From contig CAZNIV010000002.1 of assembly GCA_964573235.1 (NCBI GenBank), positions 6,102-70,101 on the forward strand: a DNA stretch of 64,000 nt, written 5' to 3'. This document shows positions 17,723 to 62,653 of this stretch, in pieces. A program made the position numbers and the translations under genes. Every line of letters starts with the position of its first letter. Positions within the stretch are counted from its first letter, which is position 1. This DNA comes from an uncultured Gammaproteobacteria bacterium. GTDB lineage: Bacteria > Patescibacteriota > Patescibacteriia > 2-01-FULL-39-33. The notes under the pieces are model-generated. The model was not told the DNA's origin. It saw nothing but the letters and a program-made list of their open reading frames with translations, and did not search any database.

Positions 17723-18724
17723 TTATTTTTTTATCTTTTTAACTAACTGATATAAATTATACCAAAAAATTCCATAACCTGTCTCATACGCACCAACATA
17801 ATCAGTAAATTTGGCATTTTCCGCAAAGCCCTGTTTAAATCTAGTTACGCCCGGCCACTTAACTTCATCCACGCCCCAAAAATCATAATATTTTTTACCT
17901 TGGGCTTTAGCTTTTAAAATTGTTTGCCATTGCAACAAATAAGGCGCCATTTTTTGGCGATATTCATAATCAGAAGCCCCGTGTAAATACACACACCAAT
18001 CATTTAAATTAATCACCAAATTGGCCGTCACTACTTTATTATCAATTTTGGCCACTACTACTTCTAAAATATTTTTAACGGATAAAACAGCTACCATTTT
18101 TTGATAATATTCTCCGCCATGGGCCATAAATTCATCACGCTCAGCTGTTAATTTAATCAAGCGTAAAAAATCAGCCAAATATTCAGCGCCGGAATGAATA
18201 GTTACGCCACTCTTTTGCGCCACTTTAATATTGTAGCGGGTCTTAGCTTTCATTTGAGATAGAAGCGCCTCTTCGTTTAGCGTCAAATCCAAAATCAAAG
18301 TTTGTTTCGGTTGAATCATATTGATTTTTTTATAACCAAAATCAGTCAACTCTATGGCGTCTATAAACCAAGCCGGATCCAACCGCGTTAAGATAGCTTT
18401 TTCTTTTACTGCCAAAGATTTTAATTCCGCCAAAAAAAATTTTAGCACTTCCTTTTGTTTTTCTATTTCCAACCCCGCCAATAAGATTGGTCCGCGAGGA
18501 ATGTAAAAATAAGTTTTGCCAAAAACCAATGGATTAACTATTGCCTGAGCGACTAATACTATTTTATCTCCGTCCATCACGCCAATTCTAAAAACTTTTC
18601 GCCCTAAAGCGATTTGTAAATCTCCCCATGACGCATTTTGTAACAAACCAAAATCTCCAGCCTGAGTTTTTACAAACTCCTGCCACTGATTAAGCTCAGC
18701 ATCATTAAAATATTTAATCGTCAT
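17723..18724 (-). CDS. FemAB-family peptidoglycan interpeptide-bridge aminoacyltransferase-like protein
   Basis: YLHGASD...APYLLQWQTILKAKAQGKKYYDFWGV region matches the conserved FemAB/GNAT-like C-terminal motif. Confidence 0.6.
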   Translation of the reverse strand: MTIKYFNDAELNQWQEFVKTQAGDFGLLQNASWGDLQIALGRKVFRIGVMDGDKIVLVAQAIVNPLVFGKTYFYIPRGPILLAGLEIEKQKEVLKFFLAELKSLAVKEKAILTRLDPAWFIDAIELTDFGYKKINMIQPKQTLILDLTLNEEALLSQMKAKTRYNIKVAQKSGVTIHSGAEYLADFLRLIKLTAERDEFMAHGGEYYQKMVAVLSVKNILEVVVAKIDNKVVTANLVINLNDWCVYLHGASDYEYRQKMAPYLLQWQTILKAKAQGKKYYDFWGVDEVKWPGVTRFKQGFAENAKFTDYVGAYETGYGIFWYNLYQLVKKIKK

Positions 18725-21700
18725 TAAATTACAAAACTAATCAAACGCCCCGGTACAAAAATAATTTTCTTAATTTCCGCTCCAGCTAAATACTGTTTAA
18801 TCCGCTCATCTTTTTTAGCTGCTACCACCGCCTCTGCTTCAGAGATTTCTACCGGCAATTCTAACTTAGCACGCACCTTACCATTAACTTGAATGGCAAA
18901 TTGAGCCGTTTTCTTGCTTACCTTATTAACATCATAAACTGGCCACTTTTCTTGATTAATACTGGCCTTGTAGCCTAAATTCTGCCACAACTCTTCGGAT
19001 AAATGAGGCGCAAATGGCGACAACATCACCGCCTCTGCTTCAGAGATTTCTACCGGCAATTCTAACTTAGCACGCACCTTACCATTAACTTGAATGGCAA
19101 ATTGAGCCGTTTTCTTGCTTACCTTATTAACATCATAAACTGGCCACTTTTCTTGATTAATACTGGCCTTGTAGCCTAAATTCTGCCACAACTCTTCGGA
19201 TAAATGAGGCGCAAATGGCGACAACATCACCAAAAATTGTTCCGACATGTCTTTGGTAAACGCTTTTACCTCTTGAATGCGATTAACTAAAATCATCATC
19301 GTAGAAATAGCGGTATTAAAACCCATTGTTTCAACATCACTACCCACTTTCATCACGGTTTGATTAAACAAGATTTCTGTTTCTTCATCAACTTGTTCCA
19401 CGATTTTTATTTCACCACTAGTATACACCGCCCAAACTTTTTCTAAAAATCTCTTTAAACCTACCATGCCTTTAGTGCTCCAAGGCTTAGCATCTTCTAA
19501 TGGACCCATGAACATTTCATACAATCTAAAAACATCCGCGCCATATTCACGCAAAATATCATCAGGATTAACCACATTGCCACGCGACTTACTCATCTTC
19601 TCGCCATCTTCACCTAAAATCAAACCTTGATTAACTAATTTTACAAACGGTTCTTCTTGAGGTACATAACCTAAGTCAAATAACACCATGTTCCAGAATC
19701 TGGCATACAATAAATGTAACACCGCATGCTCGGCACCGCCCAAATAAACATCTACCGGCAACCAATATTTTAATTTTTCCGCCGAAGCAAATTCATTCGG
19801 ATTTTTAGAATCAATATAGCGCAACCAATACCAAGAAGATCCGGCCCATTGAGGCATAGTATTGGTTTCGCGCTGGGCCTTGCCACCACAAACTGGGCAT
19901 TTTACTTCTACCCATTCTTTAATGTTCACCAATGGTGATTCACCGGTACCTGATGGTTCATATTTTTCTACCATCGGCAAAGTTAATGGCAATTCGGATT
20001 CTGGTACTGGCACAATACCGGTATTTTTGCTACGCAAAACTAGCTCCAATAATTCTGGGGTAACTGGATTATTAAAATGACCAAAACCATGCCAAACTTT
20101 AAACATCCAACCAGCTGGAATATTCTCATGCGTCTTACGACTAATCCACGGATCATCGTCAGACAAAATAATATTTTTATCCTCCACTAAATTGCTCACT
20201 TTTTCCCAACTAAAATCTGTTTCCCAAATTTTCTTCAATGATTCAACGTCGGAATTTGGCCATTGCTCTTTAAGCCACTGCCAATCGCGCTCGTTACGCT
20301 CACCAATTGCCGAGGCAATCAAATAAACATGGCCGATTTTTTTATTCGCCTGCTCAATTAAATGTAACGCCGCCTTACTACCCAGACTGTGGCCAATAAC
20401 CACATCATTAGCGCCCATTTTTTGCATATAAGGCTCAAGCGCCTTTAACCAATCAGCTAAAACCGGGTGCTCGCTATTTGGCATATCAGGCGCAAATACC
20501 TCATAGCCATTCTTTTCTAATTCCTGCTTTAAATATGGAAACCAGTTATTACTACCATTGCCCTCAAAACCATGAATCAACAACGCTTTTTGTTTTTGTT
20601 TTTTGCAATAATCACAATGAATTAACGGCATCGGTTCACCCCAATAACGCTGGCGAGAAAATACCCAGTCACGCAATTTATAGTTAACTGCCATCTTGCC
20701 TAAGTTATTAGCTTCTAGCCAGGTAATCATTTTTTTGATGGCATCTTTAGGCAATAACCCATTTAAAAAATCAGAATTAACCATTTTACCAGAGTCAATA
20801 TCCGTAAAGGCTTCGTTGGTAATATCGCCACCGCTAATTACCTCAATAATTGGCAAATCAAATTTCTTCGCAAAAGCATAATCGCGTTCATCATGCGCCG
20901 GCACTGCCATAATCGCGCCCGTACCGTAAGTACTCAAAACATAATCCGAAATCCAAATAGGAATCTCGGTATCATTGACCGGATTAATCGCTTTTATACC
21001 CTCAAGTTCTACGCCAGTCTTATCTTTATTTAATTCTGTACGCTCTAAATCAGATTTATTTTTAGCTTCCGTCGCATACCTAGTTACTTCGGCAAAATTA
21101 GTAATTTTATCTTTTAATTTTTGCACTAATTCATGCTCTGGTGATAACACCATATAAGTCGCACCAAACAAAGTATCTGGGCGAGTGGTATAAACCACGA
21201 TATCAGCCAACTCATCACCATCTTGCGCTACTTTAAAAGTCACTTCGGCGCCTTCACTGCGACCAATCCAATTACGTTGCAAGGTTTTGATTGATTCCGG
21301 CCAATTCATTTGCTCTAAACCACTCAATAAGCGATCGGCATAAGCAGTAATGCGTAACATCCATTGGCGCAAGTTCTTTCTTTCTACGACCGTGCCACAA
21401 CGCTCACATTTGCCATTAACCACCTCTTCGTTGGCCAAGCCAGTTTTACAAGATGGGCAGAAATTAATTGGCACAAAAGCTTCATATGCCAAACCTTTTT
21501 TAAATAACTGTAAAAAAATCCATTGCGTCCATTTATAATATTCCGGATCGGTCGTATCTACTTCACGCTCCCAATCATAAGAAAAACCCAAACTCTTAAT
21601 TTGCTTTCTGAAAGTATTAACATTGCTTTGAGTAGTCACACTCGGATGTGTACCAGTTTTAATCGCATAATTTTCTGCTGGTAAACCAAAAGCGTCCCAA

Positions 21701-21936
21701 CCCATCGGATGTAAAACATTAAACCCCTTTAATCTCCAATAACGAGAAAAAATATCGGTCGCTGTATAACCTTCTGGATGACCAACATGCAAACCCATAC
21801 CTGATGGATAAGGAAACATATCCAAAATATATTTCTTGGGTTTGGTGGAAAAATCTTCAGCTTTAAAAGTTTTATTATCTTCCCAGAACTTCTGCCATTT
21901 TGGCTCAATTTCACTAGGGTTATACTTAGCGTTCAT
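18724..21936 (-). CDS. leuS: Leucine--tRNA ligase carrying a ~195-aa YdeN/RBBP9-like serine-hydrolase insertion and a duplicated 67-aa C-terminal segment
   Basis: HVGHPEGY (HIGH) motif, CP1 editing domain, KMSKS, C-terminal domain. Insert runs from about 20020 to 20604; tandem duplication at 18826..19227. Confidence 0.9.
18826..19227. repeat. Perfect tandem duplication, 2 x 201 bp, in frame inside the leuS 3' region
   Basis: Unit 18826-19026 is identical to 19027-19227 in the displayed sequence; the protein shows [67 protein letters not shown] twice. Confidence 0.85.
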
Positions 21937-22022: not shown

Positions 22023-22051
22023 TTGACAATTTAGCCAAATTAAACTAAGAT
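22023..22051 (+). promoter_or_regulatory. Sigma70-type promoter for island A gene 1 (TTGACA-17-TAAGAT)
   Basis: -35 at 22023-22028, 17-nt spacer, -10 at 22046-22051. Confidence 0.5.
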
Positions 22052-22110
22052 ATTCCTCACGTACATTACAGCGAATTAACGCCAACCAACCGGAAAGGAT
22101 ACATGAGTGT

Positions 22111-22491
22111 ATGTGTAAAAACGCACTTTTGTTTCTCTTTTCCCTGATTCTGATTTTTTCGTGGTTTTCTGCGGTAATTGCGACAAAAGTGATTCCGAGC
22201 CAATCCGGCACTGTCACTTTCGTTCAATCCAGCGACCACGAGCTGAAATTTACCCCGTATTTTCCCAAATCGGAGCGTGACCCTCAACCGTCACTCGCCG
22301 TTTTGCCAGAAGAACCGGTAAAAATCAACAAAATCAGACACCTTCCACCAAGCAAAATCGCGTACAAAGCGAAAACTTGGGCGGATGAAAACAGGGAAAT
22401 TCCAGGGTTTTTGACTCTGCCGGGCCCGGCACGCAACAAAGATCCGTGTTGCCAAGAGGCACGGAAACTTGTAGTCTCGACACGGACCTAG
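22111..22491 (+). CDS. Island A gene 1: secreted 126-aa protein of unknown function (GC-rich, foreign codon usage)
   Basis: Signal-peptide-like N-terminus MCKNALLFLFSLILIFSWFSAVIA; GGAAAGGA SD at 22092-22099; CTG/CCG/GCG-rich codons unlike flanking host genes; terminator follows. Confidence 0.5.
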   Translation: MCKNALLFLFSLILIFSWFSAVIATKVIPSQSGTVTFVQSSDHELKFTPYFPKSERDPQPSLAVLPEEPVKINKIRHLPPSKIAYKAKTWADENREIPGFLTLPGPARNKDPCCQEARKLVVSTRT

Positions 22492-22591: not shown

Positions 22592-22620
22592 TTGACAACA
22601 TAACTTTTATGTGGTATAAT
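22592..22620 (+). promoter_or_regulatory. Perfect-consensus sigma70 promoter for island A gene 2 (TTGACA-17-TATAAT)
   Basis: -35 at 22592-22597, -10 at 22615-22620. Confidence 0.65.
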
Positions 22621-22663
22621 ACAGAAGTCGTACATTTAACCGCAACCTCAACTGGAGGATCTC

Positions 22664-22768
22664 ATGAAAGACCTCGTCTTTGTGCTGGCCGTCGGAGTGA
22701 TCTTCGTTTTCATCAAAATCATGAAAGTGCTCCTTGGTGAAAACAAGCAGGCGAAAAAACCCGCTTGA
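22664..22768 (+). CDS. Island A gene 2: 34-aa hydrophobic single-helix peptide MKDLVFVLAVGVIFVFIKIMKVLLGENKQAKKPA (type-I-toxin-like or small membrane peptide)
   Basis: GGAGGA SD at 22654-22659, 4 nt before the ATG; GC-rich codons; sits between the consensus promoter and the terminator. Confidence 0.55.
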   Translation: MKDLVFVLAVGVIFVFIKIMKVLLGENKQAKKPA

Positions 22769-22794
22769 ACACCTCAACCGCCACCACAACCAAA

Positions 22795-22823
22795 AGGCCC
22801 CCGCTGATCACGGAGGCCTTTTA
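22795..22823 (+). terminator. Intrinsic terminator after island A gene 2
   Basis: ggcccccg / cggaggcc stem with palindromic loop tgatca, then a T-run. Confidence 0.6.
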
Positions 22824-22867
22824 ACTTTTATCCTATTTTATAATGTAATATATAAAATTTAGCAAAA

Positions 22868-26369: not shown

Positions 26370-26930
26370 TTATCTGGATTTAACGAGCAATTCTCCGGCT
26401 TTGATGGGTGGGTCTTCTTTGAGCCCTGCATCATGCCGAAAACGCCCATAAATATCAGTGACTTTGGCATCAGTGATATCACTCTGCCCACAACGCTGAC
26501 AGCGACTACTGGCATTTGCTAAATTAATAGCCATTTGCCAATAGCGCTCTTTACTTGCCTCCTCTTGTGCCGTTACCGCCCAAACCTTTTGGCGATTATA
26601 AACAACACAAGCAACAACCACGGCCAACATCATAGCGGTAAACGTCATGCCCACTAAGTGACGATGATGTCGCACCCAGCGCTTGGCTAACACCCAAGTG
26701 ACAACCGTCGGGTAAGCCACCATCAGAGTTAAGACTACCGGCCAAGCCAATAAGTCTTTAAACCGAATCAACGACTGGTTGCACTGAAGCTTTTTTTCGT
26801 TTTGCCGATGATTGCCCCAGCATTTTTGCATGTAATCCAGCTGAGTCGCGCTAACAATATGGTTATCTACGCGATCAGTTGGCACTGTGTCACTGCTCCA
26901 CGGGACAAAGGGGTGACAGATTTTCATCAT
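26370..26930 (-). CDS. Island B: 186-aa protein with two TM helices and a Cys/His-containing C-terminal domain, unknown function
   Basis: AAGGAGGA SD at 26945..26938, 7 nt before the ATG; GC-rich E. coli-like codons; TM segments WPVVLTLMVAYPTVVTWVL and LVGMTFTAMMLAVVVACVV. Confidence 0.55.
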   Translation of the reverse strand: MMKICHPFVPWSSDTVPTDRVDNHIVSATQLDYMQKCWGNHRQNEKKLQCNQSLIRFKDLLAWPVVLTLMVAYPTVVTWVLAKRWVRHHRHLVGMTFTAMMLAVVVACVVYNRQKVWAVTAQEEASKERYWQMAINLANASSRCQRCGQSDITDAKVTDIYGRFRHDAGLKEDPPIKAGELLVKSR

Positions 26931-27022
26931 AGAAACATCCTCCTTGGGTTGTGGTTGACTGATAAATTATCATTATATAAACAGCTCTAAGCTGATTGAT
27001 AAGGTACGATAAATAACTCATT

Positions 27023-27051
27023 AGTATTTCATATTTTACCACTTTTGTCAA
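27023..27051 (-). promoter_or_regulatory. Promoter for island B gene (TTGACA-17-AATACT), -35 overlapping the divergent truD -35
   Basis: Minus-strand TTGACA at 27051..27046; -10 at 27028..27023. Confidence 0.4.
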
Positions 27052-27073
27052 CCCAACTCAAATTTGATATAAT
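27045..27073 (+). promoter_or_regulatory. truD promoter TTGTCA-17-TATAAT; the transcript would be essentially leaderless
   Basis: -10 ends at 27073 and the ATG is at 27083; there is no SD. Confidence 0.45.
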
Positions 27074-28550: not shown

Positions 28551-29135
28551 TTATTTGACGCAGGAGAAATGAACACTGCCCGCGGTGTCCATGGAGATAC
28601 CCATGTGGTTGATCTCCTCCAACTTGTAGCAATCAGCCGTCCGGGAATGGGACGGGTTAATGGTGATCGAGCGATCCGGGTTGTCGAAAACATGGACAAA
28701 CTCGAACACTCGCTCCATGATCGCCTGGATGGCAACTTCCGCCTCCTTGCTCAGCTGAACGGGTTCACCGTCAGCAAAGTTCAGATACAGAAAGCTCATG
28801 TGATCTCCGGCCTTCTTGATGATGTTGGTGCCAATCAGGTTGAACCCGATCGCCTTCATCTCGGCCATAATGCGATCGAACGAAATCATCGTCCAACCCG
28901 TGGGCCCCCAACCAGTGCGGGGCTTGCCGGAATCAGCCTGGCGATTGCCGGCCGCGTCCGTGCGATTGCCACGGAACGCATCCTTGCCAAGCTGCTCGGC
29001 CTGAAACGCGTGATTCTCGATGATCTCGCGCTGTTTGGCCTGACTCAGCACGGCCTTGGCGATACCACCAACCTTGCGAAGCTCTTCAGCGGCGGAGTCG
29101 GCAATACGGACACGAATCAGAATTTTGGTAACCAT
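28551..29135 (-). CDS. Island C gene 1 (194 aa), unknown function
   Basis: AGGAGA SD; its own consensus promoter; strongly GC3-biased codons (ctg, cgt, gcc, ggc, atc, aag). The overlapping plus-strand 225-aa ORF is rejected. Confidence 0.65.
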   Translation of the reverse strand: MVTKILIRVRIADSAAEELRKVGGIAKAVLSQAKQREIIENHAFQAEQLGKDAFRGNRTDAAGNRQADSGKPRTGWGPTGWTMISFDRIMAEMKAIGFNLIGTNIIKKAGDHMSFLYLNFADGEPVQLSKEAEVAIQAIMERVFEFVHVFDNPDRSITINPSHSRTADCYKLEEINHMGISMDTAGSVHFSCVK

Positions 29136-29213
29136 TTTTTTCTATCTCCTGTTTGTTGGGCATTATTGCCCGTTGTTGATGTACGATACACTTACTTGTA
29201 CAAGTGACCCATT

Positions 29214-29242
29214 ATTATAGCACACATCGCCAAAAATGTCAA
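29214..29242 (-). promoter_or_regulatory. Perfect-consensus sigma70 promoter (TTGACA-17-TATAAT) for island C gene 1
   Basis: Minus-strand -35 at 29242..29237 and -10 at 29219..29214; the 5'UTR carries the palindrome GGGCAttatTGCCC at 29158-29171. Confidence 0.65.
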
Positions 29243-29334
29243 TACATTTGACCTTATTTTACCCTATTTTAGCTATTTTAAACCAAATTTAGCCAAAATA
29301 AAAAGCCCCACTTATTGCAGGGCGTAAAGATTAC

Positions 29335-29820
29335 TTAGCCTCGATGACTCAGAACAATCTGGCCATCGATAACGTGCATATCCAAGTAAGCACGCTTTTT
29401 GACCGGGCAATCCAAGCGATTGCTCGAGCCAGTTAAACGCAACACGGTTAGTTCGGGCTGTTCCTTGACGGCAAACACCTCAGCCAGGTGGCGATATTCC
29501 ACTAATTGCCGACGCAATACATAACCCACCATCTCGGGAATGCCACTGCTTTTCTCTTCGCTTATATCCACGGCCAGCCAAAGACTTTTGCCATCGGCTC
29601 CCTTCCAGAACCAAAAAGTCTGGAGTTTTAGGTTACAACTATTAAGGGCGCTGATAGCTTCCCCAATAAAGATATTTTTCCGTCCGCCCATCTCCCAACC
29701 CTTGACCAAAACGCGGGTCTGAGTGGGAATGGGATTGACCGATTGTGGCACCAGACCAGAATCCAGCAACTTTCTTGCCAAGTCTGGTAACAGACACACT
29801 CTGATTTGAATTGTTTGCAT
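29335..29820 (-). CDS. Island C gene 2 (161 aa), unknown function
   Basis: AAGGAG SD 6 nt before the ATG; GC-rich codons; no dedicated promoter, sits downstream of an attenuator hairpin. Confidence 0.6.
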   Translation of the reverse strand: MQTIQIRVCLLPDLARKLLDSGLVPQSVNPIPTQTRVLVKGWEMGGRKNIFIGEAISALNSCNLKLQTFWFWKGADGKSLWLAVDISEEKSSGIPEMVGYVLRRQLVEYRHLAEVFAVKEQPELTVLRLTGSSNRLDCPVKKRAYLDMHVIDGQIVLSHRG

Positions 29821-29844
29821 TACTACTCCTTACGATTGAGTGTT

Positions 29845-29867
29845 AAAAAGGCTCGCGAGTGCGAGCC
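29845..29867 (-). terminator. Intrinsic terminator or attenuator between island C gene 3 and gene 2
   Basis: ggctcgc-actc-gcgagcc hairpin followed by TTTTT on the minus strand, only 12 nt before the gene 2 SD. Confidence 0.55.
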
Positions 29868-29888
29868 AAAATTGTCACCATCGCAATG

Positions 29889-30395
29889 CTAGCGACAGAT
29901 TATCTCCAACAGACCAGATGTATCGTCGCGACTGACCACAAAGGTGAACAAGTGGCCATCAAACTTGTGATCGGGAATGGGATTAGCCGCCTTGATTTGC
30001 ATTACCATGTCCGGATTTTCCGAATCATTCGCATTGCTAAAGGCGATAACACTTTCAAACACATGATCATTCAGCCAGTTGCGAATGAACTCCATCTGCA
30101 GGGGGCGTTTCGAGTTGCGACGAGTGAACTCCAACCGCAGATAACGCCGATGCGCTTCTTCGGTTAGTCCCACTTCGGTCAAGCGAAGCGCAACCGAGTC
30201 AACATCTTCCAGTAACCCCGCCAAACTGACACCATGGACGGTGTTCTTGGCGCCATTGATGCCGTGCTGGGTACCGACGAGACGCATCTTCGCCTTGTCG
30301 ACCGTAATGCCAATCTCTTGACAGCGATCATGCGCCGCCAAAGTAAGACCAACAAAGATAGTCAACACCTCTTCCTGCTCTCTTCTCTTTGGCAT
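29889..30395 (-). CDS. Island C gene 3 (168 aa), unknown function
   Basis: AAAGGGAGGAA SD 7 nt before the ATG; GC-rich codons. Confidence 0.6.
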   Translation of the reverse strand: MPKRREQEEVLTIFVGLTLAAHDRCQEIGITVDKAKMRLVGTQHGINGAKNTVHGVSLAGLLEDVDSVALRLTEVGLTEEAHRRYLRLEFTRRNSKRPLQMEFIRNWLNDHVFESVIAFSNANDSENPDMVMQIKAANPIPDHKFDGHLFTFVVSRDDTSGLLEIICR

Positions 30396-30457
30396 GGTTC
30401 TTTCCTCCCTTTATTGCTTGGTTGAACACTTATCAAACTAATTAAACGTACAAAAAA

Positions 30458-30496
30458 CTTAGTTATTGGTTTACCACATAACTAAGCTTCTGTCAA
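30458..30496 (-). promoter_or_regulatory. Island C operon promoter (TTGACA-17-TAAACC) overlapped by a perfect 9-bp inverted repeat, a candidate operator
   Basis: IR arms cttagttat (30458-30466) and ataactaag (30478-30486) with an 11-nt spacer cover the -10 region; -35 at 30496..30491. Confidence 0.45.
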
Positions 30497-30510
30497 TGCT
30501 TTAAATATTT

Positions 30511-45913: not shown

Positions 45914-46201
45914 TCAGATATGGACCGCTACGGAGCGACCGTGAAGATGCTCCTCGCGCTTCTTGAACTCTTTGGCACACTTGTCATTGCAAACATGGCC
46001 GATATGCACGTCGATTGACCGCACCGGAATGCGGTAATGACCATGCGGATCCTTGTCGCTCAGCGGATTCAAGCACAGCAGACACTGTTCGGGGATCTCG
46101 ACCTGCGGCCGGTGATGCTCAGCCGAAATTTCCGGCGGAATCATCGTCGCAACATCGTCACCTTGAACACCCGCACCGCCCGTCCCTGTTGATCCTCCCA
46201 T
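45914..46201 (-). CDS. Island D: 95-aa Gly-rich N-terminus plus Cys/His-rich putative zinc-ribbon protein, unknown function
   Basis: AGGAGG SD 7 nt before the ATG; CxxC...HxH...HIGHVCNDKC pattern; GC-rich codons. Confidence 0.55.
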   Translation of the reverse strand: MGGSTGTGGAGVQGDDVATMIPPEISAEHHRPQVEIPEQCLLCLNPLSDKDPHGHYRIPVRSIDVHIGHVCNDKCAKEFKKREEHLHGRSVAVHI

Positions 46202-46285
46202 GGCTGTTCCTCCTCTTGCTTGGTTGGTTTAGGCACTACTCACACAAATTTTAAAAATAAAAGAACGATTTTACACGGTCTTCTG

Positions 46286-46314
46286 ATTATAGGATAAAAT
46301 CGCCTTTATGTCAA
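46286..46314 (-). promoter_or_regulatory. Perfect-consensus promoter TTGACA-17-TATAAT for island D, abutting the rsmE stop codon
   Basis: -35 at 46314..46309 sits directly next to the rsmE TAG at 46315-46317. Confidence 0.65.
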
Positions 46315-47025
46315 CTACTTAATCATCACCACGCTAGCAACGGCCAACACAGCCGTTTCAGCCCGTAAAATGCGTCGCCCCAAAGAAACTATTTGCCATT
46401 TAGCCTTCTTAGCTGATTCCGCTTCGTTTTTACTTAATCCACCCTCTGGGCCAATCAAAATTGCTACCGAACCGCTAATATTTTTTAATTCTTTCGCTAA
46501 AGATAAATCCGTCGCCTCCTCCCAAGCAAAAAACTTATTTTTCTCCGCACTATTTTTTAAGACAAAATTTAAATCTACTTCTGGCGCCAATTCCAATAAC
46601 TTATTAGCTCCACATTGTTCCGCCGCTTCCTTAATAATTTCTTGATAACGCTTTAATTTCTGCTCTGAGATACTTCTGACAATACAGCGCTCCGTTATTA
46701 CTGGCACCACTCTTTTCACTCCTAATTCCGCGCATTTTTGCAAAACCAATTCAAACTTATCCGCTTTAAGCAAACCGATATACATCGTTAAATCTACTTC
46801 GGGATCAGGTTTGGCAAATTGCTTATCGATCAATAAAAAAACAGCTTGCTTATCATCCACCTCAACTAATTGCCCAATATATTCAAAGCCATCACCATTG
46901 AATAAACCAAAGCGATCGCCCAACTGAACGCGCAACACCTTTTTTAACTGATGGCAAAACTCCCTATCCACTACATTGATATAATCGGATTTAAACAAAT
47001 CGGCTGATAAATAAAATCTTTGCAT
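46315..47025 (-). CDS. rsmE: 16S rRNA (uracil1498-N3)-methyltransferase RsmE-like
   Basis: PUA-like N-terminus plus SPOUT C-terminal domain (GPEGGLS). Confidence 0.75.
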   Translation of the reverse strand: MQRFYLSADLFKSDYINVVDREFCHQLKKVLRVQLGDRFGLFNGDGFEYIGQLVEVDDKQAVFLLIDKQFAKPDPEVDLTMYIGLLKADKFELVLQKCAELGVKRVVPVITERCIVRSISEQKLKRYQEIIKEAAEQCGANKLLELAPEVDLNFVLKNSAEKNKFFAWEEATDLSLAKELKNISGSVAILIGPEGGLSKNEAESAKKAKWQIVSLGRRILRAETAVLAVASVVMIK

Positions 47026-47087: not shown

Positions 47088-48338
47088 ATGGAAAACAACA
47101 TCAAGACAATCCTTGGCCTAATTGACCAAGAAACCAAGAGGCAACAAGACGGTTTGGTGATGATTGCTTCGGAAAATTACGCTTCCGAACAAGTGCTTCA
47201 GGCCATGGGCACCCCACTTTCCAATAAGTATAGTGAGGGCTACCCAGGAAAACGCTATTACACCGGTAATCAGTTTGTCGATCAAATTGAATCCATGGCG
47301 CAAAAATTAGCGTTGCAAATGTTTAATATCAGTGAAAATAATTGGCACGCCAATGTTCAGCCTCATTCCGGCTCTTCGGCCAATATTGCCGTTTACATGG
47401 CTACTCTTAAGCCGGGTGATAAAATTTTAGGCTTAGATCTAGGCGCTGGCGGTCATTTAACTCATGGCTCTCCGGTTAACTTCTCTGGAAAATTATTTCA
47501 TTTCATTCATTACACCGTTAATCCTAAAACTCATGTTTTTGATTATGATGAAATTGAAGCCATCGCTAAACGCGAACAACCAAAAATGATTGTTTGTGGT
47601 GCTACCGCTTACACTCAAATCATTGATTTCAAGCGGTTTGCGCAAATCGCTAAAAGTGTTAACGCTTTATTATTAGCTGACATTTCTCATATCGCCGGAT
47701 TAATTATTGGCGATGTCCATCCAACCCCATTTCCTGATGCCGATATTATCACCACCACCACTCACAAGACTCTAGGTGGCCCACGTAGTGCCATTATTAT
47801 TTGTCGCAAATCTTTGGCGCCCGCTATTGATAAAGCGGTTTTCCCGGGTATGCAGGGCGGTCCTCAAGATCATGTCACCGCTGCTAAGGCGATTTGTTTT
47901 GCTGAAGCCATGACCCCAGAATTTAAACAACGCCAAAAACAAACCGTGCTTAATGCGGAAGTGATGGCTAAAACTTTAAAAGATAATGGCATTAAGCTAG
48001 TGGCCGATAGCACCCAAAATCATTTGGTTTTATTAGATTGCCAAAATTTAGGTATTAGTGGTAAAGAAGGCGCGAACATTATGGCCGAAGCGGAAATTTA
48101 TACTAACGCTAACATGATTCCATTTGACCCCGCTACTCCAATGAACCCTTCCGGTATTCGCTTGGGTACTCCGGCTTTAACCGCTCGTGGCATGAAAGAA
48201 GCCGAGATGGTTATTATTGGCAATTGGATCGCGCAAATTTTAAAAGCACCAACCGATAAAGCGCTTCGTGATAAAATTAAAACCGAAGTATTGGCTTTGA
48301 CTAAAAAATTTCCTATTTACCAACATGGCGAAAAGTAA
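47088..48338 (+). CDS. glyA: Serine hydroxymethyltransferase
   Basis: Conserved TTTTHKTL(G)GPR PLP-lysine region. Confidence 0.95.
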   Translation: MENNIKTILGLIDQETKRQQDGLVMIASENYASEQVLQAMGTPLSNKYSEGYPGKRYYTGNQFVDQIESMAQKLALQMFNISENNWHANVQPHSGSSANIAVYMATLKPGDKILGLDLGAGGHLTHGSPVNFSGKLFHFIHYTVNPKTHVFDYDEIEAIAKREQPKMIVCGATAYTQIIDFKRFAQIAKSVNALLLADISHIAGLIIGDVHPTPFPDADIITTTTHKTLGGPRSAIIICRKSLAPAIDKAVFPGMQGGPQDHVTAAKAICFAEAMTPEFKQRQKQTVLNAEVMAKTLKDNGIKLVADSTQNHLVLLDCQNLGISGKEGANIMAEAEIYTNANMIPFDPATPMNPSGIRLGTPALTARGMKEAEMVIIGNWIAQILKAPTDKALRDKIKTEVLALTKKFPIYQHGEK

Positions 48339-49149
48339 AGTCGGCACTTATCTAGACGGAAAGGAATTAGCCGAAAAATTAAAATTAGATTTACGCAAAA
48401 AAATTGTCGCTAGCAATAAAGAATTTGGTTTAGCTGCCATCTTAATTGGTGATGACCCCGCTTCCCATTTGTATGTTAAGCTCAAAGAAAAAGCGTGCCA
48501 AGATTTAGGTATTAATTTTCATCGTTATTTATTTGACCCTAAATTAACTAGCGAAAAAGAAGTTTTAGAAGCGATCGCTTTTTTAAATAAAGACGAAGAT
48601 ACGACTGGTATTTTAGTGCAGTTACCTTTACCGGAAGGCTTTGATGCTAATAAAATTGTTGGTACTATTACTAAAGAAAAAGATGTAGATGGTTTTATTA
48701 CTGACAACAGTAAAATTCAATCCCCAGTCTCCGTAGCGGTTACTGAATTACTAAATGCCGCTGGTGATTTTGCAAAAAACAAATCTAAACTTAACGCCTT
48801 AATTATTGCTAAAGATGGCGTACTGGCTAATGATTTAAAAAAGCAACTTCAGCAATTAAATTTAAAAACTGTTACTCACGAAACTAATATTCCAAAAAAC
48901 AGTACTGATTATGATGTAATTGTAATTGCTTTGGGTAAACCACAAGCATTGAATAAAACTATGATTAAAAAGGATGCGATTATTATCGATATTGGCATCA
49001 ATAAACTTAAAGATAAAACCGTTGGTGATGTAGCTGAAGATGCCATTAAACAAGCCTCTTTTATCTCTCCCGTTCCTGGTGGGGTTGGCCCACTAACCGT
49101 AGCCGGGCTCATGAAAAATCTTTGCATTCTAGCAGAAGTAGAAAAATAG
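48325..49149 (+). CDS. folD: Bifunctional methylenetetrahydrofolate dehydrogenase/cyclohydrolase
   Basis: Typical FolD N-terminus and GGVGP motif. Confidence 0.9.
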   Translation: MAKSKVGTYLDGKELAEKLKLDLRKKIVASNKEFGLAAILIGDDPASHLYVKLKEKACQDLGINFHRYLFDPKLTSEKEVLEAIAFLNKDEDTTGILVQLPLPEGFDANKIVGTITKEKDVDGFITDNSKIQSPVSVAVTELLNAAGDFAKNKSKLNALIIAKDGVLANDLKKQLQQLNLKTVTHETNIPKNSTDYDVIVIALGKPQALNKTMIKKDAIIIDIGINKLKDKTVGDVAEDAIKQASFISPVPGGVGPLTVAGLMKNLCILAEVEK

Positions 49150-49154
49150 AAATT

Positions 49155-49193
49155 AAAAAGCCGCCTCCGTTTCCCGGGGGCGGCGTTGTTTTT
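49155..49193. terminator. Bidirectional GC-rich terminator shared by folD (+) and island E gene 1 (-)
   Basis: gccgcc...ggcggc stem containing cccggg, with an A-run before and a T-run after. Confidence 0.6.
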
Positions 49194-49201
49194 ATCATTG
49201 A

Positions 49202-50155
49202 TCAATTCACACCGACCAAATCCTCTTTGTTTATCACAGCAATTTGCCAATTGTGACAAAACTTAAATTGAATGTCATTAGAGCAACAATTAAACTCCTC
49301 CATAATCAGGCGAATTACCACATTATGCGTTAACCGCATCAACGCATCCAAGCGGTTATTGCGACTGGAAAAAATATCCCAGTCTGTCGTCATCTGTTGA
49401 CGTCGCCAAATCTTCACTCCCTCCGCGCTATCCTCAACATTATCCGGCCAGTAATCCTGACGGACCTGATCGAAAAAATGTGTCAATGAATAGAGTTGCT
49501 TAATCGGCTCAGAAATAACCACTCCCAAAACCGAGTCACGCGAACTGGCCGCCGGAAACCGATCACCCAAAGAGCTTTTGATTTTTGAGCGACCGGTAAT
49601 GATTTCTTCTACACAACGGAAGTAATCATTTAGGAAATGATAGCCCGACCTAAACATCAGTGGCAATTGCTCATCGAAATCAGCGGCCACAATAACATGC
49701 CAGCCGTAGCAGATGTCCCACTCGCTGGCCGGATAAGCCAACAATGGGTGCTGAGAAATAATCGACTCATCAAACATGTCGGCAATGATATTCAAGCACT
49801 CATCTTCCGCCTTCAAAAAACTGAGAAACTCAAGCTTTTTTTCGGGCGGCAGAATAGCTGCGTGAGCGATATCAATCGGGCCACTGGGAACAATTCCCGC
49901 ATTCAAGCCATAATCGGCCACCATACAATCCTTCATGAAAAGCCGTTTTTGCCTTTCATAATATTTCTCCGCCAACTGGTAAAGATACCACCAGCGCTTT
50001 GGCCCATCGCCATTAACCACACCCCAAACTCGGCTATTTTCTTCCACCTCGTCTTCATTCGGCTCAATACCGGAAAACTTTCTGAGCGGAACCTTATCCT
50101 TAAAACCTAAGCGTAAAACTTCGCTCAAACGAAGGGGTTTCATTTTGTAGCTCAT
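49202..50155 (-). CDS. Island E gene 1 (317 aa), unknown function
   Basis: Start MSYKMKPLRL with AAGGAGGA SD 5 nt upstream; the track ORF is over-extended to 50212. GC-rich codons. Confidence 0.6.
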   Translation of the reverse strand: MSYKMKPLRLSEVLRLGFKDKVPLRKFSGIEPNEDEVEENSRVWGVVNGDGPKRWWYLYQLAEKYYERQKRLFMKDCMVADYGLNAGIVPSGPIDIAHAAILPPEKKLEFLSFLKAEDECLNIIADMFDESIISQHPLLAYPASEWDICYGWHVIVAADFDEQLPLMFRSGYHFLNDYFRCVEEIITGRSKIKSSLGDRFPAASSRDSVLGVVISEPIKQLYSLTHFFDQVRQDYWPDNVEDSAEGVKIWRRQQMTTDWDIFSSRNNRLDALMRLTHNVVIRLIMEEFNCCSNDIQFKFCHNWQIAVINKEDLVGVN

Positions 50156-50218
50156 AACTTCCTCCTTGGGTTGTTTGGTTGCTATTTTTACTGACTTTTT
50201 TATAAAGAACACCCCTTT

Positions 50219-50247
50219 CTTTTACTCCAATGGGCTTATTTTGTCAA
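50219..50247 (-). promoter_or_regulatory. Promoter TTGACA-17-TAAAAG for island E gene 1
   Basis: Lies immediately downstream of the E2 terminator T-run. Confidence 0.45.
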
Positions 50248-50249
50248 TT

Positions 50250-50286
50250 AAAAAACCCGCCGCAGTTTTAGACAAACTTTGGCGGG
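50250..50286 (-). terminator. Intrinsic terminator after island E gene 2
   Basis: cccgcc...ggcggg stem then TTTTTT on the minus strand. Confidence 0.65.
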
Positions 50287-50307
50287 TAACACGATAACCC
50301 TGGCGAT

Positions 50308-51273
50308 TTAGTGGGCGAACTTTTTGATGGTAACCACTTGCCACCCTTGACGCAACCCAATAACTCTGGGGCAATTGGCACCGACGGCATCGCGCATCGC
50401 GATTTCGTTCAGGCCATTAACAAGATTGATCATCTCGTTGACTCTGGCAAACTGATCATCCAGAAACCGCGCCCGATCAACCGTTTGCTTGCCCATCCAA
50501 ACATCGAAGGCAAGTTTATTGTTTATGTTGTCGGGAACAATCCCGCTGGCATATTCTCCGATGCGCTCCAGCAACAGACACAGCCGCGGAATAATCGGAT
50601 CATCAACTTCGCAAAGCACCGTTTCTTCGTCGCCAACTGGCGGGAGATTAAAACCATGGGCTTTGGCGACAATCAGGTCGGAGCTATCAGAGAAAATCTC
50701 CGTCAGTCGAGCGAACAAATCGCCGACATACTCGCTCTTGGGAATGGGCTCATAATCCATTTTCCTGGCAACGGCAACACACCAGCCGTTAGTGATTTGC
50801 GGTATGGCTTCCTGGCAAGCCGTGATCGGGAATTCCGAGTGCACCGCCTCCCAAAAAAGAGCGCGCCACAATGAAGCCTGAGACCTGGCATGGATAACCG
50901 CCTCGTAAAGCTGTTTGGCCTTTGGATCGGTTTCAACGACACTCTTAACCTTGCCCGCCCCTTGACTCACCTCTTCCAGGTCAATCGCGAGCATCATCTG
51001 GTCTTGGGAAAATTGACACATCGTGATACCCTGACCAAAACCAGGAGCACCCGACATGTTCCGGCGGAGAAGCTCCACCAGTTCCTTGTGACCGTTATTC
51101 GCTTCGTCGATTTTCTTATCAACCAGCGCCAAAATGGCCTGGCCGATCGGATTTTTCATCGTACCGATCACGACACGACCATCTTCCAGTTCTCCATTCG
51201 GCTCAAAGCCAGAAACCGGTACTTGGCCAGAAAAAATCCGGCACAACAATTCACTCGTTCCGCGACGATTCAT
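50308..51273 (-). CDS. Island E gene 2 (321 aa), unknown function
   Basis: Start MNRRGTSELL with AAGGAGA SD 7 nt upstream; the track start at 51279 is a GTG. GC-rich codons. Confidence 0.6.
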   Translation of the reverse strand: MNRRGTSELLCRIFSGQVPVSGFEPNGELEDGRVVIGTMKNPIGQAILALVDKKIDEANNGHKELVELLRRNMSGAPGFGQGITMCQFSQDQMMLAIDLEEVSQGAGKVKSVVETDPKAKQLYEAVIHARSQASLWRALFWEAVHSEFPITACQEAIPQITNGWCVAVARKMDYEPIPKSEYVGDLFARLTEIFSDSSDLIVAKAHGFNLPPVGDEETVLCEVDDPIIPRLCLLLERIGEYASGIVPDNINNKLAFDVWMGKQTVDRARFLDDQFARVNEMINLVNGLNEIAMRDAVGANCPRVIGLRQGWQVVTIKKFAH

Positions 51274-51332
51274 GGTCACTTCTCCTTATGCTTTCTTGGT
51301 TGACTAACATTTTATACAAAGAACGACTCATA

Positions 51333-51361
51333 TTATTAACATATTAAAGCTAATTTGTCAA
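51333..51361 (-). promoter_or_regulatory. Promoter TTGACA-17-TAATAA for island E gene 2
   Basis: Read directly from the sequence; follows the host exonuclease terminator at 51373-51408. Confidence 0.4.
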
Positions 51362-51419
51362 AGGCTCAAATTAAAAAACCGCCAAGTAATAATTATACTT
51401 GACGACCGATAATTTAATT

Positions 51420-51974
51420 TTAATTAGTGCTTTCGGAATTTAATAACAATTCCATCAACTTTACAAATACTAACGCATTAGTTTCTACGTCCGCCATGGC
51501 TCGATGTGCCACCTTCGGCTCATACCCAAAATATTTAGCCACTTCCCCTAAATTATTTTTTGGCAAACGCAATAATTTTCTAGTTAATTCTAGCGTATCA
51601 ATCATTTTATTTTGCATTATACCTAGCGATAAGCGCTTTAAATGATTTGTTACAAACAGCCAATCAAAATCACGAATATTATGCCCAACCACAATATTAT
51701 CGCCCACAAATTTTACAAAATTAGTCATCGCTTTACGCGCCTCTTGACCGTTAACTAATAAAAAAATTTCATTCAAGCCATGGATTTTTTCTACCTCCCT
51801 TGGAACACCTTTAGTTGGCGCGATTAAGGCTTCAAAGCGCTCTACAATTTCGCCATTACGCACTCGGCAAGCAGCAATTTCTACAATTTCATGATTAACC
51901 GGATCTAGCCCAGTCGTTTCAATATCAAACACTACAAAATCCGTAATTAAAAATTTTTGGTATTTCTCATGCAT
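51420..51974 (-). CDS. DEDDh 3'-5' exonuclease (DnaQ/epsilon-like)
   Basis: FDIETTGL exo I motif, H-x4-D exo III. Confidence 0.75.
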   Translation of the reverse strand: MHEKYQKFLITDFVVFDIETTGLDPVNHEIVEIAACRVRNGEIVERFEALIAPTKGVPREVEKIHGLNEIFLLVNGQEARKAMTNFVKFVGDNIVVGHNIRDFDWLFVTNHLKRLSLGIMQNKMIDTLELTRKLLRLPKNNLGEVAKYFGYEPKVAHRAMADVETNALVFVKLMELLLNSESTN

Positions 51975-53377: not shown

Positions 53378-53406
53378 TTGACAAATAGGCAAATATGTGC
53401 TATACT
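53378..53406 (+). promoter_or_regulatory. Promoter TTGACA-17-TATACT for island F, followed by a perfect 7-bp inverted repeat at the predicted +1 (53413-53427)
   Basis: TCGTCAC-a-GTGACGA lies right at the transcription start; about 148-nt 5'UTR with a GGCC-caaaa-GGCC hairpin before the SD. Confidence 0.55.
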
Positions 53407-53560
53407 CCAGAGTCGTCACAGTGACGATTTTAGATATAATTGTTCCTTTCATTTTTATTTGAAATTAACAAGCCGGGTGGTTTGTTGATGATAGGATAGG
53501 GGCATGTCGCCCGCAGTATCTGGAAAAGTAGGCCCAAAAGGCCAAAGGAGGAGAGTTCCC

Positions 53561-54343
53561 ATGAATACGACAAACACAAACCCCGCCACCGTCACCGTCG
53601 CCAAGGGATTGATCGAGTTCAACTCGACAGTCTTGGCAGGAATCGTTTTCCGCAAGGAAGACAAGCCGGCCATCAAAGAAGCAACCGAGAAAGTCGCCAA
53701 CGGGCAGTTTCTGGTTCCGCCGGACAACTCCGACGAGCTCCAGCAAATCGGCATCAGTGATGCCAGCCAGAGCGAGAATCTGCTCGAGTTGCAGAAGGAA
53801 CTCATCAAGCTGGTGAAAACTGGCAAAATGGGTCCGATATGCTTGACTCCGGCTGTTCCCCAGACCACCGTGACCGATGTTCGCATGGAAAACGGCGTAG
53901 TCAAGCGCGAGTTCCCCTCGCACTTGGGTCTGCCGGTTATCGTGGCACAGAACGGCCGCAAGGAGTTTCTCCAGCCCCGCTGGTGGTACATTGGTGCTGA
54001 GATCGGTACCGATCTCGTTCCCAGGTTCACCTGCTGGCAGTACGTCGCCACCCTCGACCGGGAAACTGGTCAGTGGTGCTGGAAGCCGGTTCTGGATGAT
54101 CGTGGCGAACATCGTTGCGCCATGGCAACCGGCGATCGGGTAAAACATTTGGTCGGAGCGAGCTGGAGCCATATGGACCACTTCGTGGTTCCGTTGGTGA
54201 ACAAAGCACGCGAATTGGCCAAGAAGGAAGCTAAGGCGAGCACCATTGTCGCCGCTGCCTTCACCCCGCCCAAGCCCCGGCCCCTCGGCACCATCGGCGA
54301 CGCCATGGCCGCCAAGTCCAAAGGCGCCCACCAGGCCGCCTAA
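53561..54343 (+). CDS. Island F (260 aa), unknown function
   Basis: AAGGAGGAGAG SD before ATG 53561 (the track start 53504 is in frame upstream); GC-rich codons; Ala/Lys/Pro-rich C-terminal tail. Confidence 0.6.
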   Translation: MNTTNTNPATVTVAKGLIEFNSTVLAGIVFRKEDKPAIKEATEKVANGQFLVPPDNSDELQQIGISDASQSENLLELQKELIKLVKTGKMGPICLTPAVPQTTVTDVRMENGVVKREFPSHLGLPVIVAQNGRKEFLQPRWWYIGAEIGTDLVPRFTCWQYVATLDRETGQWCWKPVLDDRGEHRCAMATGDRVKHLVGASWSHMDHFVVPLVNKARELAKKEAKASTIVAAAFTPPKPRPLGTIGDAMAAKSKGAHQAA

Positions 54344-54364
54344 ACCAAACAAACCACCCAAACC

Positions 54365-54442
54365 CAGCCGGGCCTACGAAAGTACGCCCGGCTGTTCAAT
54401 TTTTAAGCGAAACAAAAAACGGGCTTTCACCCGTTTTTTATA
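54365..54442 (+). terminator. Tandem double terminator after island F
   Basis: cagccggg...cccggctg (8-bp stem) followed by aaaacgggc-tttca-cccgtttttt. Confidence 0.65.
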
Positions 54443-62624: not shown

Positions 62625-62653
62625 AATATATCATATTTTAGCGATATTGTCAA
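62625..62653 (-). promoter_or_regulatory. Promoter TTGACA-17-TATATT for island G
   Basis: Read directly from the sequence. Confidence 0.5.

Follow-up and report, generated by a model that had tools for sequence, protein, structure and literature searches.

Two genes, designated E1 and E2, were analysed in a 64,000-nucleotide stretch of contig CAZNIV010000002.1 (GenBank assembly GCA_964573235.1), hereafter called the window. Their products are diverged paralogues from a protein family that had not been described before and is without a representative in Pfam, NCBIfam or PDB, and every taxonomically named member of the family is from Patescibacteria, also called the Candidate Phyla Radiation (CPR). 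The observation of E1 and E2 as real genes was confirmed. The pair is probably a tandemly duplicated accessory cassette, which would circulate horizontally in the manner of a phage moron and whose product is probably a non-enzymatic binding or scaffold protein. The initial annotation of the window had described two unknown proteins in self-contained, back-to-back monocistronic cassettes of foreign composition, and this description was supported by promoter-like, Shine-Dalgarno (SD) and terminator signals and by codon usage.

Protein family and predicted fold

E1 (317 aa) and E2 (321 aa) were found to be 21% identical over their full length (BLASTP, E 8e-7). The early view of two unknown proteins of about 320 amino acids was right in that neither belongs to a known family, but they are not true orphans; they are diverged paralogues, and each is internally duplicated. 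No motif had been recognised in either protein, and none of Pfam, NCBIfam, PHROGs and PADLOC gave a match for E1 or E2 (0 families at E<=1 in PADLOC-DB 2.0). A word-indexed search of 5.8 billion proteins returned E1 itself alone. A family profile was built from E1 and E2 and used in an exhaustive HMMER search of 1.84 billion cluster representatives, with a threshold of E<=1e-3. This gave 22 matches, consisting of E1 itself, a fragment of E2 and 20 other proteins, 208-353 aa in length and with E-values from 2e-14 to 1e-3, which were assembled into the 22-sequence alignment A2. Against the family hidden Markov model (HMM), E1 and E2 each scored about 252 bits. None of the 22 members matched Pfam, and the PHROG and PADLOC matches were isolated noise, with only two isolated PADLOC matches at E 0.03-0.07.

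Members with a named source came from metagenome-assembled genomes (MAGs) of Ca. Saccharibacteria, Ca. Paceibacterota and the "Patescibacteria group", and all were annotated as "hypothetical protein". E1 and E2 are thus members of an unnamed family of Patescibacteria hypothetical proteins, including HMP85088.1, MDE2037827.1 and WCL61_02190, the last being E1. Most genomes carry a single copy. In tblastn searches E2 detected relatives (E 1e-9 to 1e-17) and E1 did not, which indicates that E1 is the faster-evolving copy.

Within each protein, a helix-hairpin/beta-hairpin module of about 115-150 aa is duplicated in tandem. Profile-profile comparison of the N-terminal and C-terminal halves with hhalign gave a probability of 99.1% (E 6.6e-19), and cross-repeat tblastn matches were also seen among the family. 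The approximate positions of the N-terminal and C-terminal repeats are 50758-51273 and 50320-50718 in E2, and 49682-50128 and 49232-49624 in E1. In A2 the module begins with a short "L..IF.G" helix and a "GE.V.G" strand, followed by a long "D.R..L..L" helix, a variable loop, a long "LFW..V..E.P" helix and an "R.GW.VV" hairpin. Conservation is seen in W, L, F, P, G and V columns together with E217, D225 and R308; W311 does not vary, and at least 90% of the members have W164 and P149.

AlphaFold2 models were obtained with a predicted local distance difference test score (pLDDT) of 85.3 and a predicted template modelling score (pTM) of 0.84 for E2, and 84.9 and 0.85 for E1. Both models have the same order of elements, with two helical hairpins of about 30 residues, each capped by a strand and a beta-hairpin. 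Internal duplication of one module would thereby have produced a predicted pseudo-dimeric helical bundle capped by small sheets. The remote-homology check proposed in the initial annotation, carried out by profile searches and by Foldseek with the E2 model, gave no significant match to a known family: against PDB and BFVD, Foldseek returned E>=0.35 and template modelling (TM) scores of at most about 0.24-0.33, and a sequence-profile search of PDB was empty. The best-probability Foldseek match, itself not significant, was PhoU (PDB 1t72 and 1xwm; E 0.5-1.0, probability 0.21-0.35, TM 0.23-0.33). PhoU resembles the E family in having a two-fold internal sequence repeat that builds a helical bundle. 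However, the metal-binding motif of PhoU is absent from the E family, there is no sequence-profile relationship between the two, and each repeat of the E family has a beta-strand and a GW beta-hairpin in addition. An ESCRT-III, PspA, PhoU or HEPN-like fold was rejected, as the similarity was that of generic helical hairpins only.

No catalytic constellation is conserved in A2, where nearly all of the conserved residues are hydrophobic or structural ones, so that a non-enzymatic binding or scaffold role appears most likely from the alignment. No signal peptide or membrane segment was apparent on reading the sequences. The isoelectric points of the family range from 4.75 to 9.8, and a DNA mimic or acidic decoy was rejected on this basis. 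In about 13 of the 22 members the N-terminal repeat contains EH-x3-H with (H/D)C 8-15 residues further on, which could be a structural zinc site. In E2 (residues ~60-120) the motif is replaced by a low-confidence 30-residue loop, and it is absent from E1. Because it has been lost in E1, E2 and others, the motif is not essential, and a zinc or catalytic site was rejected as an essential feature of the family. A C-terminal extension found in many members is also lacking in E1 and E2. The two proteins could act together as a hetero-oligomer.

Cassette architecture

Both genes were placed by the initial annotation in the gap between folD and a DnaQ-like exonuclease gene. The domain matches agreed with this: E1 and E2 are minus-strand open reading frames (ORFs) in the interval between folD (48325-49149, plus strand; THF_DHG_CYH domains) and a DnaQ/RNase_T-like exonuclease gene (51420-51974, minus strand; PF00929, E 2e-30). 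The wider flanks are folD/glyA/rsmE on one side and dnaQ-like/ychF on the other. The upstream border of the island is the intrinsic terminator of the dnaQ-like gene (51377-51407, minus strand), detected in the terminator scan and as a copy of repeat family D2. Its 3' arm and T-run (GGCGGTTTTTTAATTT) are similar to those of the E2 and E1 terminators.

The E2 cassette follows on the minus strand. A promoter-like site, TTGACA-18 nt-AATAAT (51332-51361), matches the consensus at 11 of 12 positions, and the 5' leader (51274-51331) contains the CA-rich element TCAACCAA and the SD sequence AAGGAG (51282-51287) located 8 nt before the ATG. The coding sequence of this family-typical copy (50308-51273; MNRRGTSELL) is followed by an intrinsic terminator (50250-50287) with a CCCGCC...GGCGGG stem and an inner AGUUU/AAACU helix, and then U6. 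The terminator folds with -20.7 kcal/mol (z -2.2), and 4 of 200 shuffled sequences folded as well.

The promoter-like site of E1, TTGACA-17 nt-TAAAAG (50219-50247, minus strand), has an exact -35 element and a weak -10 element without the final T. It begins only 2 nt after the T-run of the E2 terminator, exactly as first described (U6, AA, TTGACA). The E1 leader (50156-50218) carries the motifs GTTCTTTATAAAA and GCAACCAAACAACCC and the SD sequence AAGGAGG (50161-50167), 5 nt before the ATG of the more diverged paralogue (49202-50155; MSYKMKPLRL). The downstream border of the island is a GC-rich hairpin with T-runs on both sides (49155-49184), a predicted bidirectional terminator for E1 on the minus strand and folD on the plus strand. 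It folds with -19.4 kcal/mol (z -3.0), is followed by UUUUU, and none of 200 shuffles folded as well. The strong GC-stem terminators reported earlier for both genes were thus recovered. A TTGACA-17 promoter and an AAGGAGG site had been reported for each gene; both hold for E1, with the weak -10 element, whereas E2 has an 18-nt spacer and AAGGAG. A simple promoter count for the region gave 11 sites with 8.2 expected, which is not above chance.

The ATG starts that had been argued from the SD sites were found to be the better ones. The ORF list over-extends E1 to a GTG at 50212 and begins E2 at a GTG at 51279. For E1, AAGGAGG stands 5 nt before the ATG at 50155, in agreement with the NCBI call for an identical MAG protein, WCL61_02190 (GCA_037133135.1), which has 317 aa and begins MSYKMKPL. 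For E2, AAGGAG stands 8 nt before the ATG at 51273 and only 2 nt before the GTG.

The E1 and E2 leaders of 60-90 nt were found to be unstructured and no more stable than shuffled sequences (z -0.45 for the E2 leader). Rfam gave no match in the leaders, and a single sub-threshold small RNA match overlaps the folD/E1 terminator. A structured leader or riboswitch was rejected on these grounds. The leader motif GTTCTTT...CAACCAA is common to E1, E2, the 95-aa gene of island D and the family locus L017, but is not present in all family leaders.

The cassette was found to be conserved well beyond the window. All 11 family genes examined, including E1 and E2, are stand-alone cassettes with a predicted TTGACA promoter, long leader and hairpin terminator. 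In 11 of 11 the start is preceded, at a distance of 59-133 nt, by an exact TTGACA (0.046 expected per 200 nt), and a GC-rich hairpin with a T-tract follows the stop codon in every case. The family leaders are at least 55 nt long and CA-rich, and are followed by a purine-rich SD-like element. For the pattern scans of the loci a four-member subfamily was used, as the full family alignment is too divergent. The proposed order of each cassette would be a preceding terminator, a TTGACA promoter, a long CA-rich leader, an SD site, a single ORF and an intrinsic terminator.

The sequence GGCGG(N)TTTTTTAATT recurs at all three borders of the E island, in the dnaQ, E2 and E1 terminators, and copies of repeat family D2 are located at 49150, 50246 and 51368. 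The same terminator and T-run motif at three borders fits a tandem duplication of the promoter-to-terminator unit, and the E1 and E2 cassettes would accordingly be tandem duplicates carrying the diverged paralogues. Mobile-element borders were rejected, as only this repeated terminator motif was found at the borders.

The gene neighbourhood is not conserved. In ten loci the family gene always stands alone among unrelated housekeeping genes with no recurrent neighbour. Apart from the family gene itself, with copies that are 44% identical, two Saccharibacteria genomes have nothing in common within +/-8 kb. It had been suggested that homologues might co-occur with proteins of islands C or F, two of the other GC-rich islands of the window. 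This was not found at 11 homologue loci, covering 120 kb, where no island B, C, D or F proteins were seen near the homologues. At one locus (L019, 3362-11052) six ORFs without a Pfam match (127-194 aa), separated by long spacers, surround the family member P0018, and another TTGACAAAA directly follows the P0018 gene terminator, like the E2/E1 junction. The run may be an array of similar cassettes.

An own promoter, an own terminator and a deviating GC content are the defining traits of phage morons (PMC3594210). The concept of Juhala and Hendrix, with the HK97 gene 15 element as an example, is reviewed in the same paper. The E cassette is like a phage moron in having a single ORF with its own sigma-70-type promoter and factor-independent terminator, both predicted for E, in deviating in GC from its neighbours, in being inserted among unrelated genes, and in its apparent horizontal spread as a unit. 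Unlike a phage moron, it lies outside any phage or prophage, between folD/glyA and dnaQ-like/ychF and with no PHROG match, is tandemly duplicated, and sits in CPR chromosomes whose own genes are without SD sites. The E proteins are unrelated to known moron products. Without a phage context the E cassette is not a moron in the strict sense; it would behave like a moron minus the phage.

Integron cassettes and arrays of single-ORF cassettes are also compact one-gene modules, arranged head to tail, often of unknown function and of off-host composition. However, the E cassettes have their own promoter-like site and terminator, no integrase was found among the neighbours of the E island, and no attC-like imperfect inverted repeats were found at its borders, only terminator hairpins. 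With own promoters and no attC or integrase, the E cassettes are not integron cassettes.

Composition and origin

The window, a segment of a bacterial chromosome, is AT-rich, with about 37% GC interrupted by short GC spikes. The composition of the E island is elevated, with a GC content of 0.45 and a third-position GC content (GC3) of 0.51 for E1, and 0.52 and 0.57 for E2, compared to a host GC3 of about 0.31. Relative synonymous codon usage correlated poorly with the host pool (r 0.44 for E1 and 0.10 for E2) compared to host genes (r 0.85, minimum 0.71). Against the other islands the correlation was 0.60 for E1 and 0.65 for E2.

The islands also differ from the host genes in their translation signals. 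An SD-like motif was found in 9 of 9 island genes but in 0 of 37 host genes in the window (Fisher p 9e-10), and all four occurrences of AGGAGGA in the window are in island leaders. Housekeeping genes without SD sites were found throughout the window and in L013, L014, L016 and L017, with SD sites confined to GC-deviant, Pfam-less genes. Part of the Parcubacteria are without an anti-SD motif (PMC9297842). The E locus would belong to a class of foreign, SD-led accessory cassettes set among the SD-less or leaderless housekeeping genes of its genome.

Across eight genomes the GC3 of the family genes was 0.40-0.61 compared to 0.23-0.82 for the hosts, with a slope of 0.18 that is not significant (p 0.19). 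In the 62% GC genome L016 (host GC3 0.82), the family gene has a GC3 of 0.58, is poorer in GC than its host and carries a long leader, and the genome's own genes look leaderless, with TATAAT 6-7 nt before the ATG. A GC3 that moves towards 0.5 from both sides is hard to attribute to selection for expression and fits a gene pool moving among CPR genomes. The promoter-to-terminator unit would be what is inherited and moved from such a pool.

A different origin was also considered, in which E1 and E2 are native, vertically inherited and very highly expressed lineage-specific genes, with the strong promoter, the long stabilising leader, the SD site, a CA-rich enhancer, the strong terminator and the codon shift all due to selection for high expression. 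The AT-rich, host-like promoter and leader regions, the same architecture in all islands of the window and at all family loci, and the absence of mobility genes are in favour of this, as is the confinement of the family to CPR, by which a donor from outside the phylum is not possible. The fall of GC3 to 0.58 in L016 argues against it, since translational selection would not bring GC3 closer to 0.5 from either side alike. Furthermore, there is no synteny even between the two Saccharibacteria, the family members are few and patchily distributed (about 20 representatives in 1.84 billion), and highly expressed core proteins are normally conserved and not about 20% identical. Native, highly expressed genes therefore appear an unlikely explanation.

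Several observations weigh against a horizontally circulating accessory cassette. Regulatory parts that are AT-rich like the host make a native origin with special expression requirements conceivable. No mobility machinery, terminal inverted repeats or target-site duplications were found at the island borders. No phage or plasmid relatives were found by tblastn among 50,697 phage and 72,556 plasmid records, nor in IMG/VR, and a phage or plasmid origin was rejected. No empty site was seen in a sister genome; the retrievable relatives of the folD-dnaQ locus all belong to the same population (99.97-100% identity). The promoters, transcription start sites and terminators are predictions. As for the protein, the term non-enzymatic is based only on finding no conserved polar constellation across 22 sequences, and the EH-x3-H...C motif that many members carry, though not E1 and E2, could confer metal binding. 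The accessory cassette is still considered the probable explanation.

Possible role in genetic conflict

Another functional reading is that E1 and E2 form a two-component conflict module, such as an anti-phage defence, an anti-defence or immunity pair, or a symbiont-host factor, with an arms race as the cause of their fast divergence. The cassette explanation leaves room for such a function. The distribution is accessory, patchy and context-free, the composition is foreign, and the tandem paralogues diverge asymmetrically, E2 matching relatives that E1 does not. The predicted autonomous expression of the cassettes resembles that of prophage morons, whose products often serve in exclusion or defence (PMC3594210), and the neighbouring islands include a cassette for a 34-aa hydrophobic peptide reminiscent of small toxins. 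However, no credible PADLOC or PHROG match was obtained for the 22 members, and no nuclease, NTPase or other effector motif was seen. A single copy in most genomes means that a two-gene system is not the rule, and the genes are not in recognisable defence islands. E1/E2 is not a recognised defence system, and a conflict role, plausible but without motif support, is considered somewhat less probable still than native, highly expressed genes.

Assembly integrity and other islands

The possibility that the GC shift is an assembly chimera had been raised in the initial annotation. Five independent public assemblies (two from ENA and one each from NCBI, Logan and JGI) contain the same sequence at 99.97-100% identity, with contigs overlapping across the folD/E1, E1/E2 and E2/dnaQ junctions, and E2-dnaQ-ychF is also reproduced. 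Several public contigs stop inside E2 (50744-50906) and inside the 95-aa island gene. The non-matching contig ends are untrimmed Nextera adapter, CTGTCTCTTATACACATCT and its complement (L001 4862-4904; L003 1-43), so these breaks are low-coverage artefacts and not allelic variability. A hypervariable locus was rejected, as the breakpoints within the GC-rich islands end in this adapter. An assembly chimera or contaminant, or spurious ORFs in GC-rich sequence, could be suspected from the broken contigs and from the ORFs of 157, 187 and 137 aa that the mechanical ORF list gives on the strand opposite E1 and E2, but these explanations are effectively refuted by the reproduced junctions and adapter ends, by homologues with conserved motifs and confident predicted folds, and by regulatory signals that match the minus-strand ORFs alone. 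Homology of E1 and E2 to common metabolic enzymes, which had also been named as an argument against foreign cassettes, was not found.

The window contains at least seven further GC-rich genes without a family match (126, 186, 194, 161, 168, 95 and 260 aa), located in 22023-22491, 26370-27055, 28551-30500, 45914-46318 and 53378-54410. They share the codon usage of E1 and E2, and six combine a TTGACA promoter of their own with a CA-rich leader, an AAGGAGG-type SD site and a hairpin terminator. For the 161-aa gene an SD site and a terminator were found, and no promoter is visible after the preceding terminator. Whole-protein and single-repeat HMMs matched only E1 and E2 among 211 six-frame ORFs, and an all-against-all BLASTP of the island proteins gave nothing; the other islands were therefore rejected as relatives of E1 and E2. 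A further island-type cassette (22592-22830, plus strand) was found below the cut-off of the ORF list. It has a TTGACA-17-TATAAT promoter, a TGGAGGA SD site, a hairpin terminator and a 34-aa hydrophobic peptide (MKDLVFVLAVGVIFVFIKIMKVLLGENKQAKKPA), which could be a small membrane peptide or a toxin.

Two unrelated features were observed. A perfect tandem duplication with a 205-bp unit (18826-19231, 100% identity) lies inside a 1070-aa ORF (18724-21936, minus strand); as 205 is not a multiple of 3, the duplication is frameshifting or an assembly artefact. An orphan consensus promoter, TTGACA-17-TATATT, is located at 62653 on the minus strand, with no annotated gene within 250 nt downstream.

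Significance

CPR bacteria account for a large share of bacterial diversity, yet about half of their genes lack an annotation and little is known of how they exchange genes. If E1 and E2 were only a lineage-specific hypothetical pair, the practical gain would lie in improved annotation and in a seed alignment of its members. The new family has a confident predicted fold with no match among solved structures, and its motifs GE.V.G, LFW..V..E.P and R.GW.VV can be used for annotation. The conserved unit is the whole expression cassette and not the gene neighbourhood, with a composition near 50% GC in hosts of 29-62% GC. This buffering of composition would be a direct and testable signature of a CPR-wide accessory gene pool. 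The split between SD-less housekeeping genes and SD-led islands bears on translation start in CPR bacteria with reduced ribosomes (PMC9297842).

A more far-reaching proposal, tentative and on present evidence rather doubtful, is that Patescibacteria share a pool of integrase-free promoter-to-terminator cassettes, or "chromosomal morons", with the E1/E2 family as one marker, and that these constitute a second expression regime. Cassettes equipped with a sigma-70 consensus promoter, a long CA-rich leader, an SD site and a terminator of their own would in that case provide an SD-dependent route of translation. In an even bolder variant, the cassette signals would be suited to expression by the bacterium that hosts the episymbiont. 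If the proposal is true, the units move among genomes of 29-62% GC too fast to take on the composition of the host, and an SD-dependent second expression regime would be reserved for the mobile accessory genome, as opposed to SD-less or leaderless expression of the housekeeping genes.

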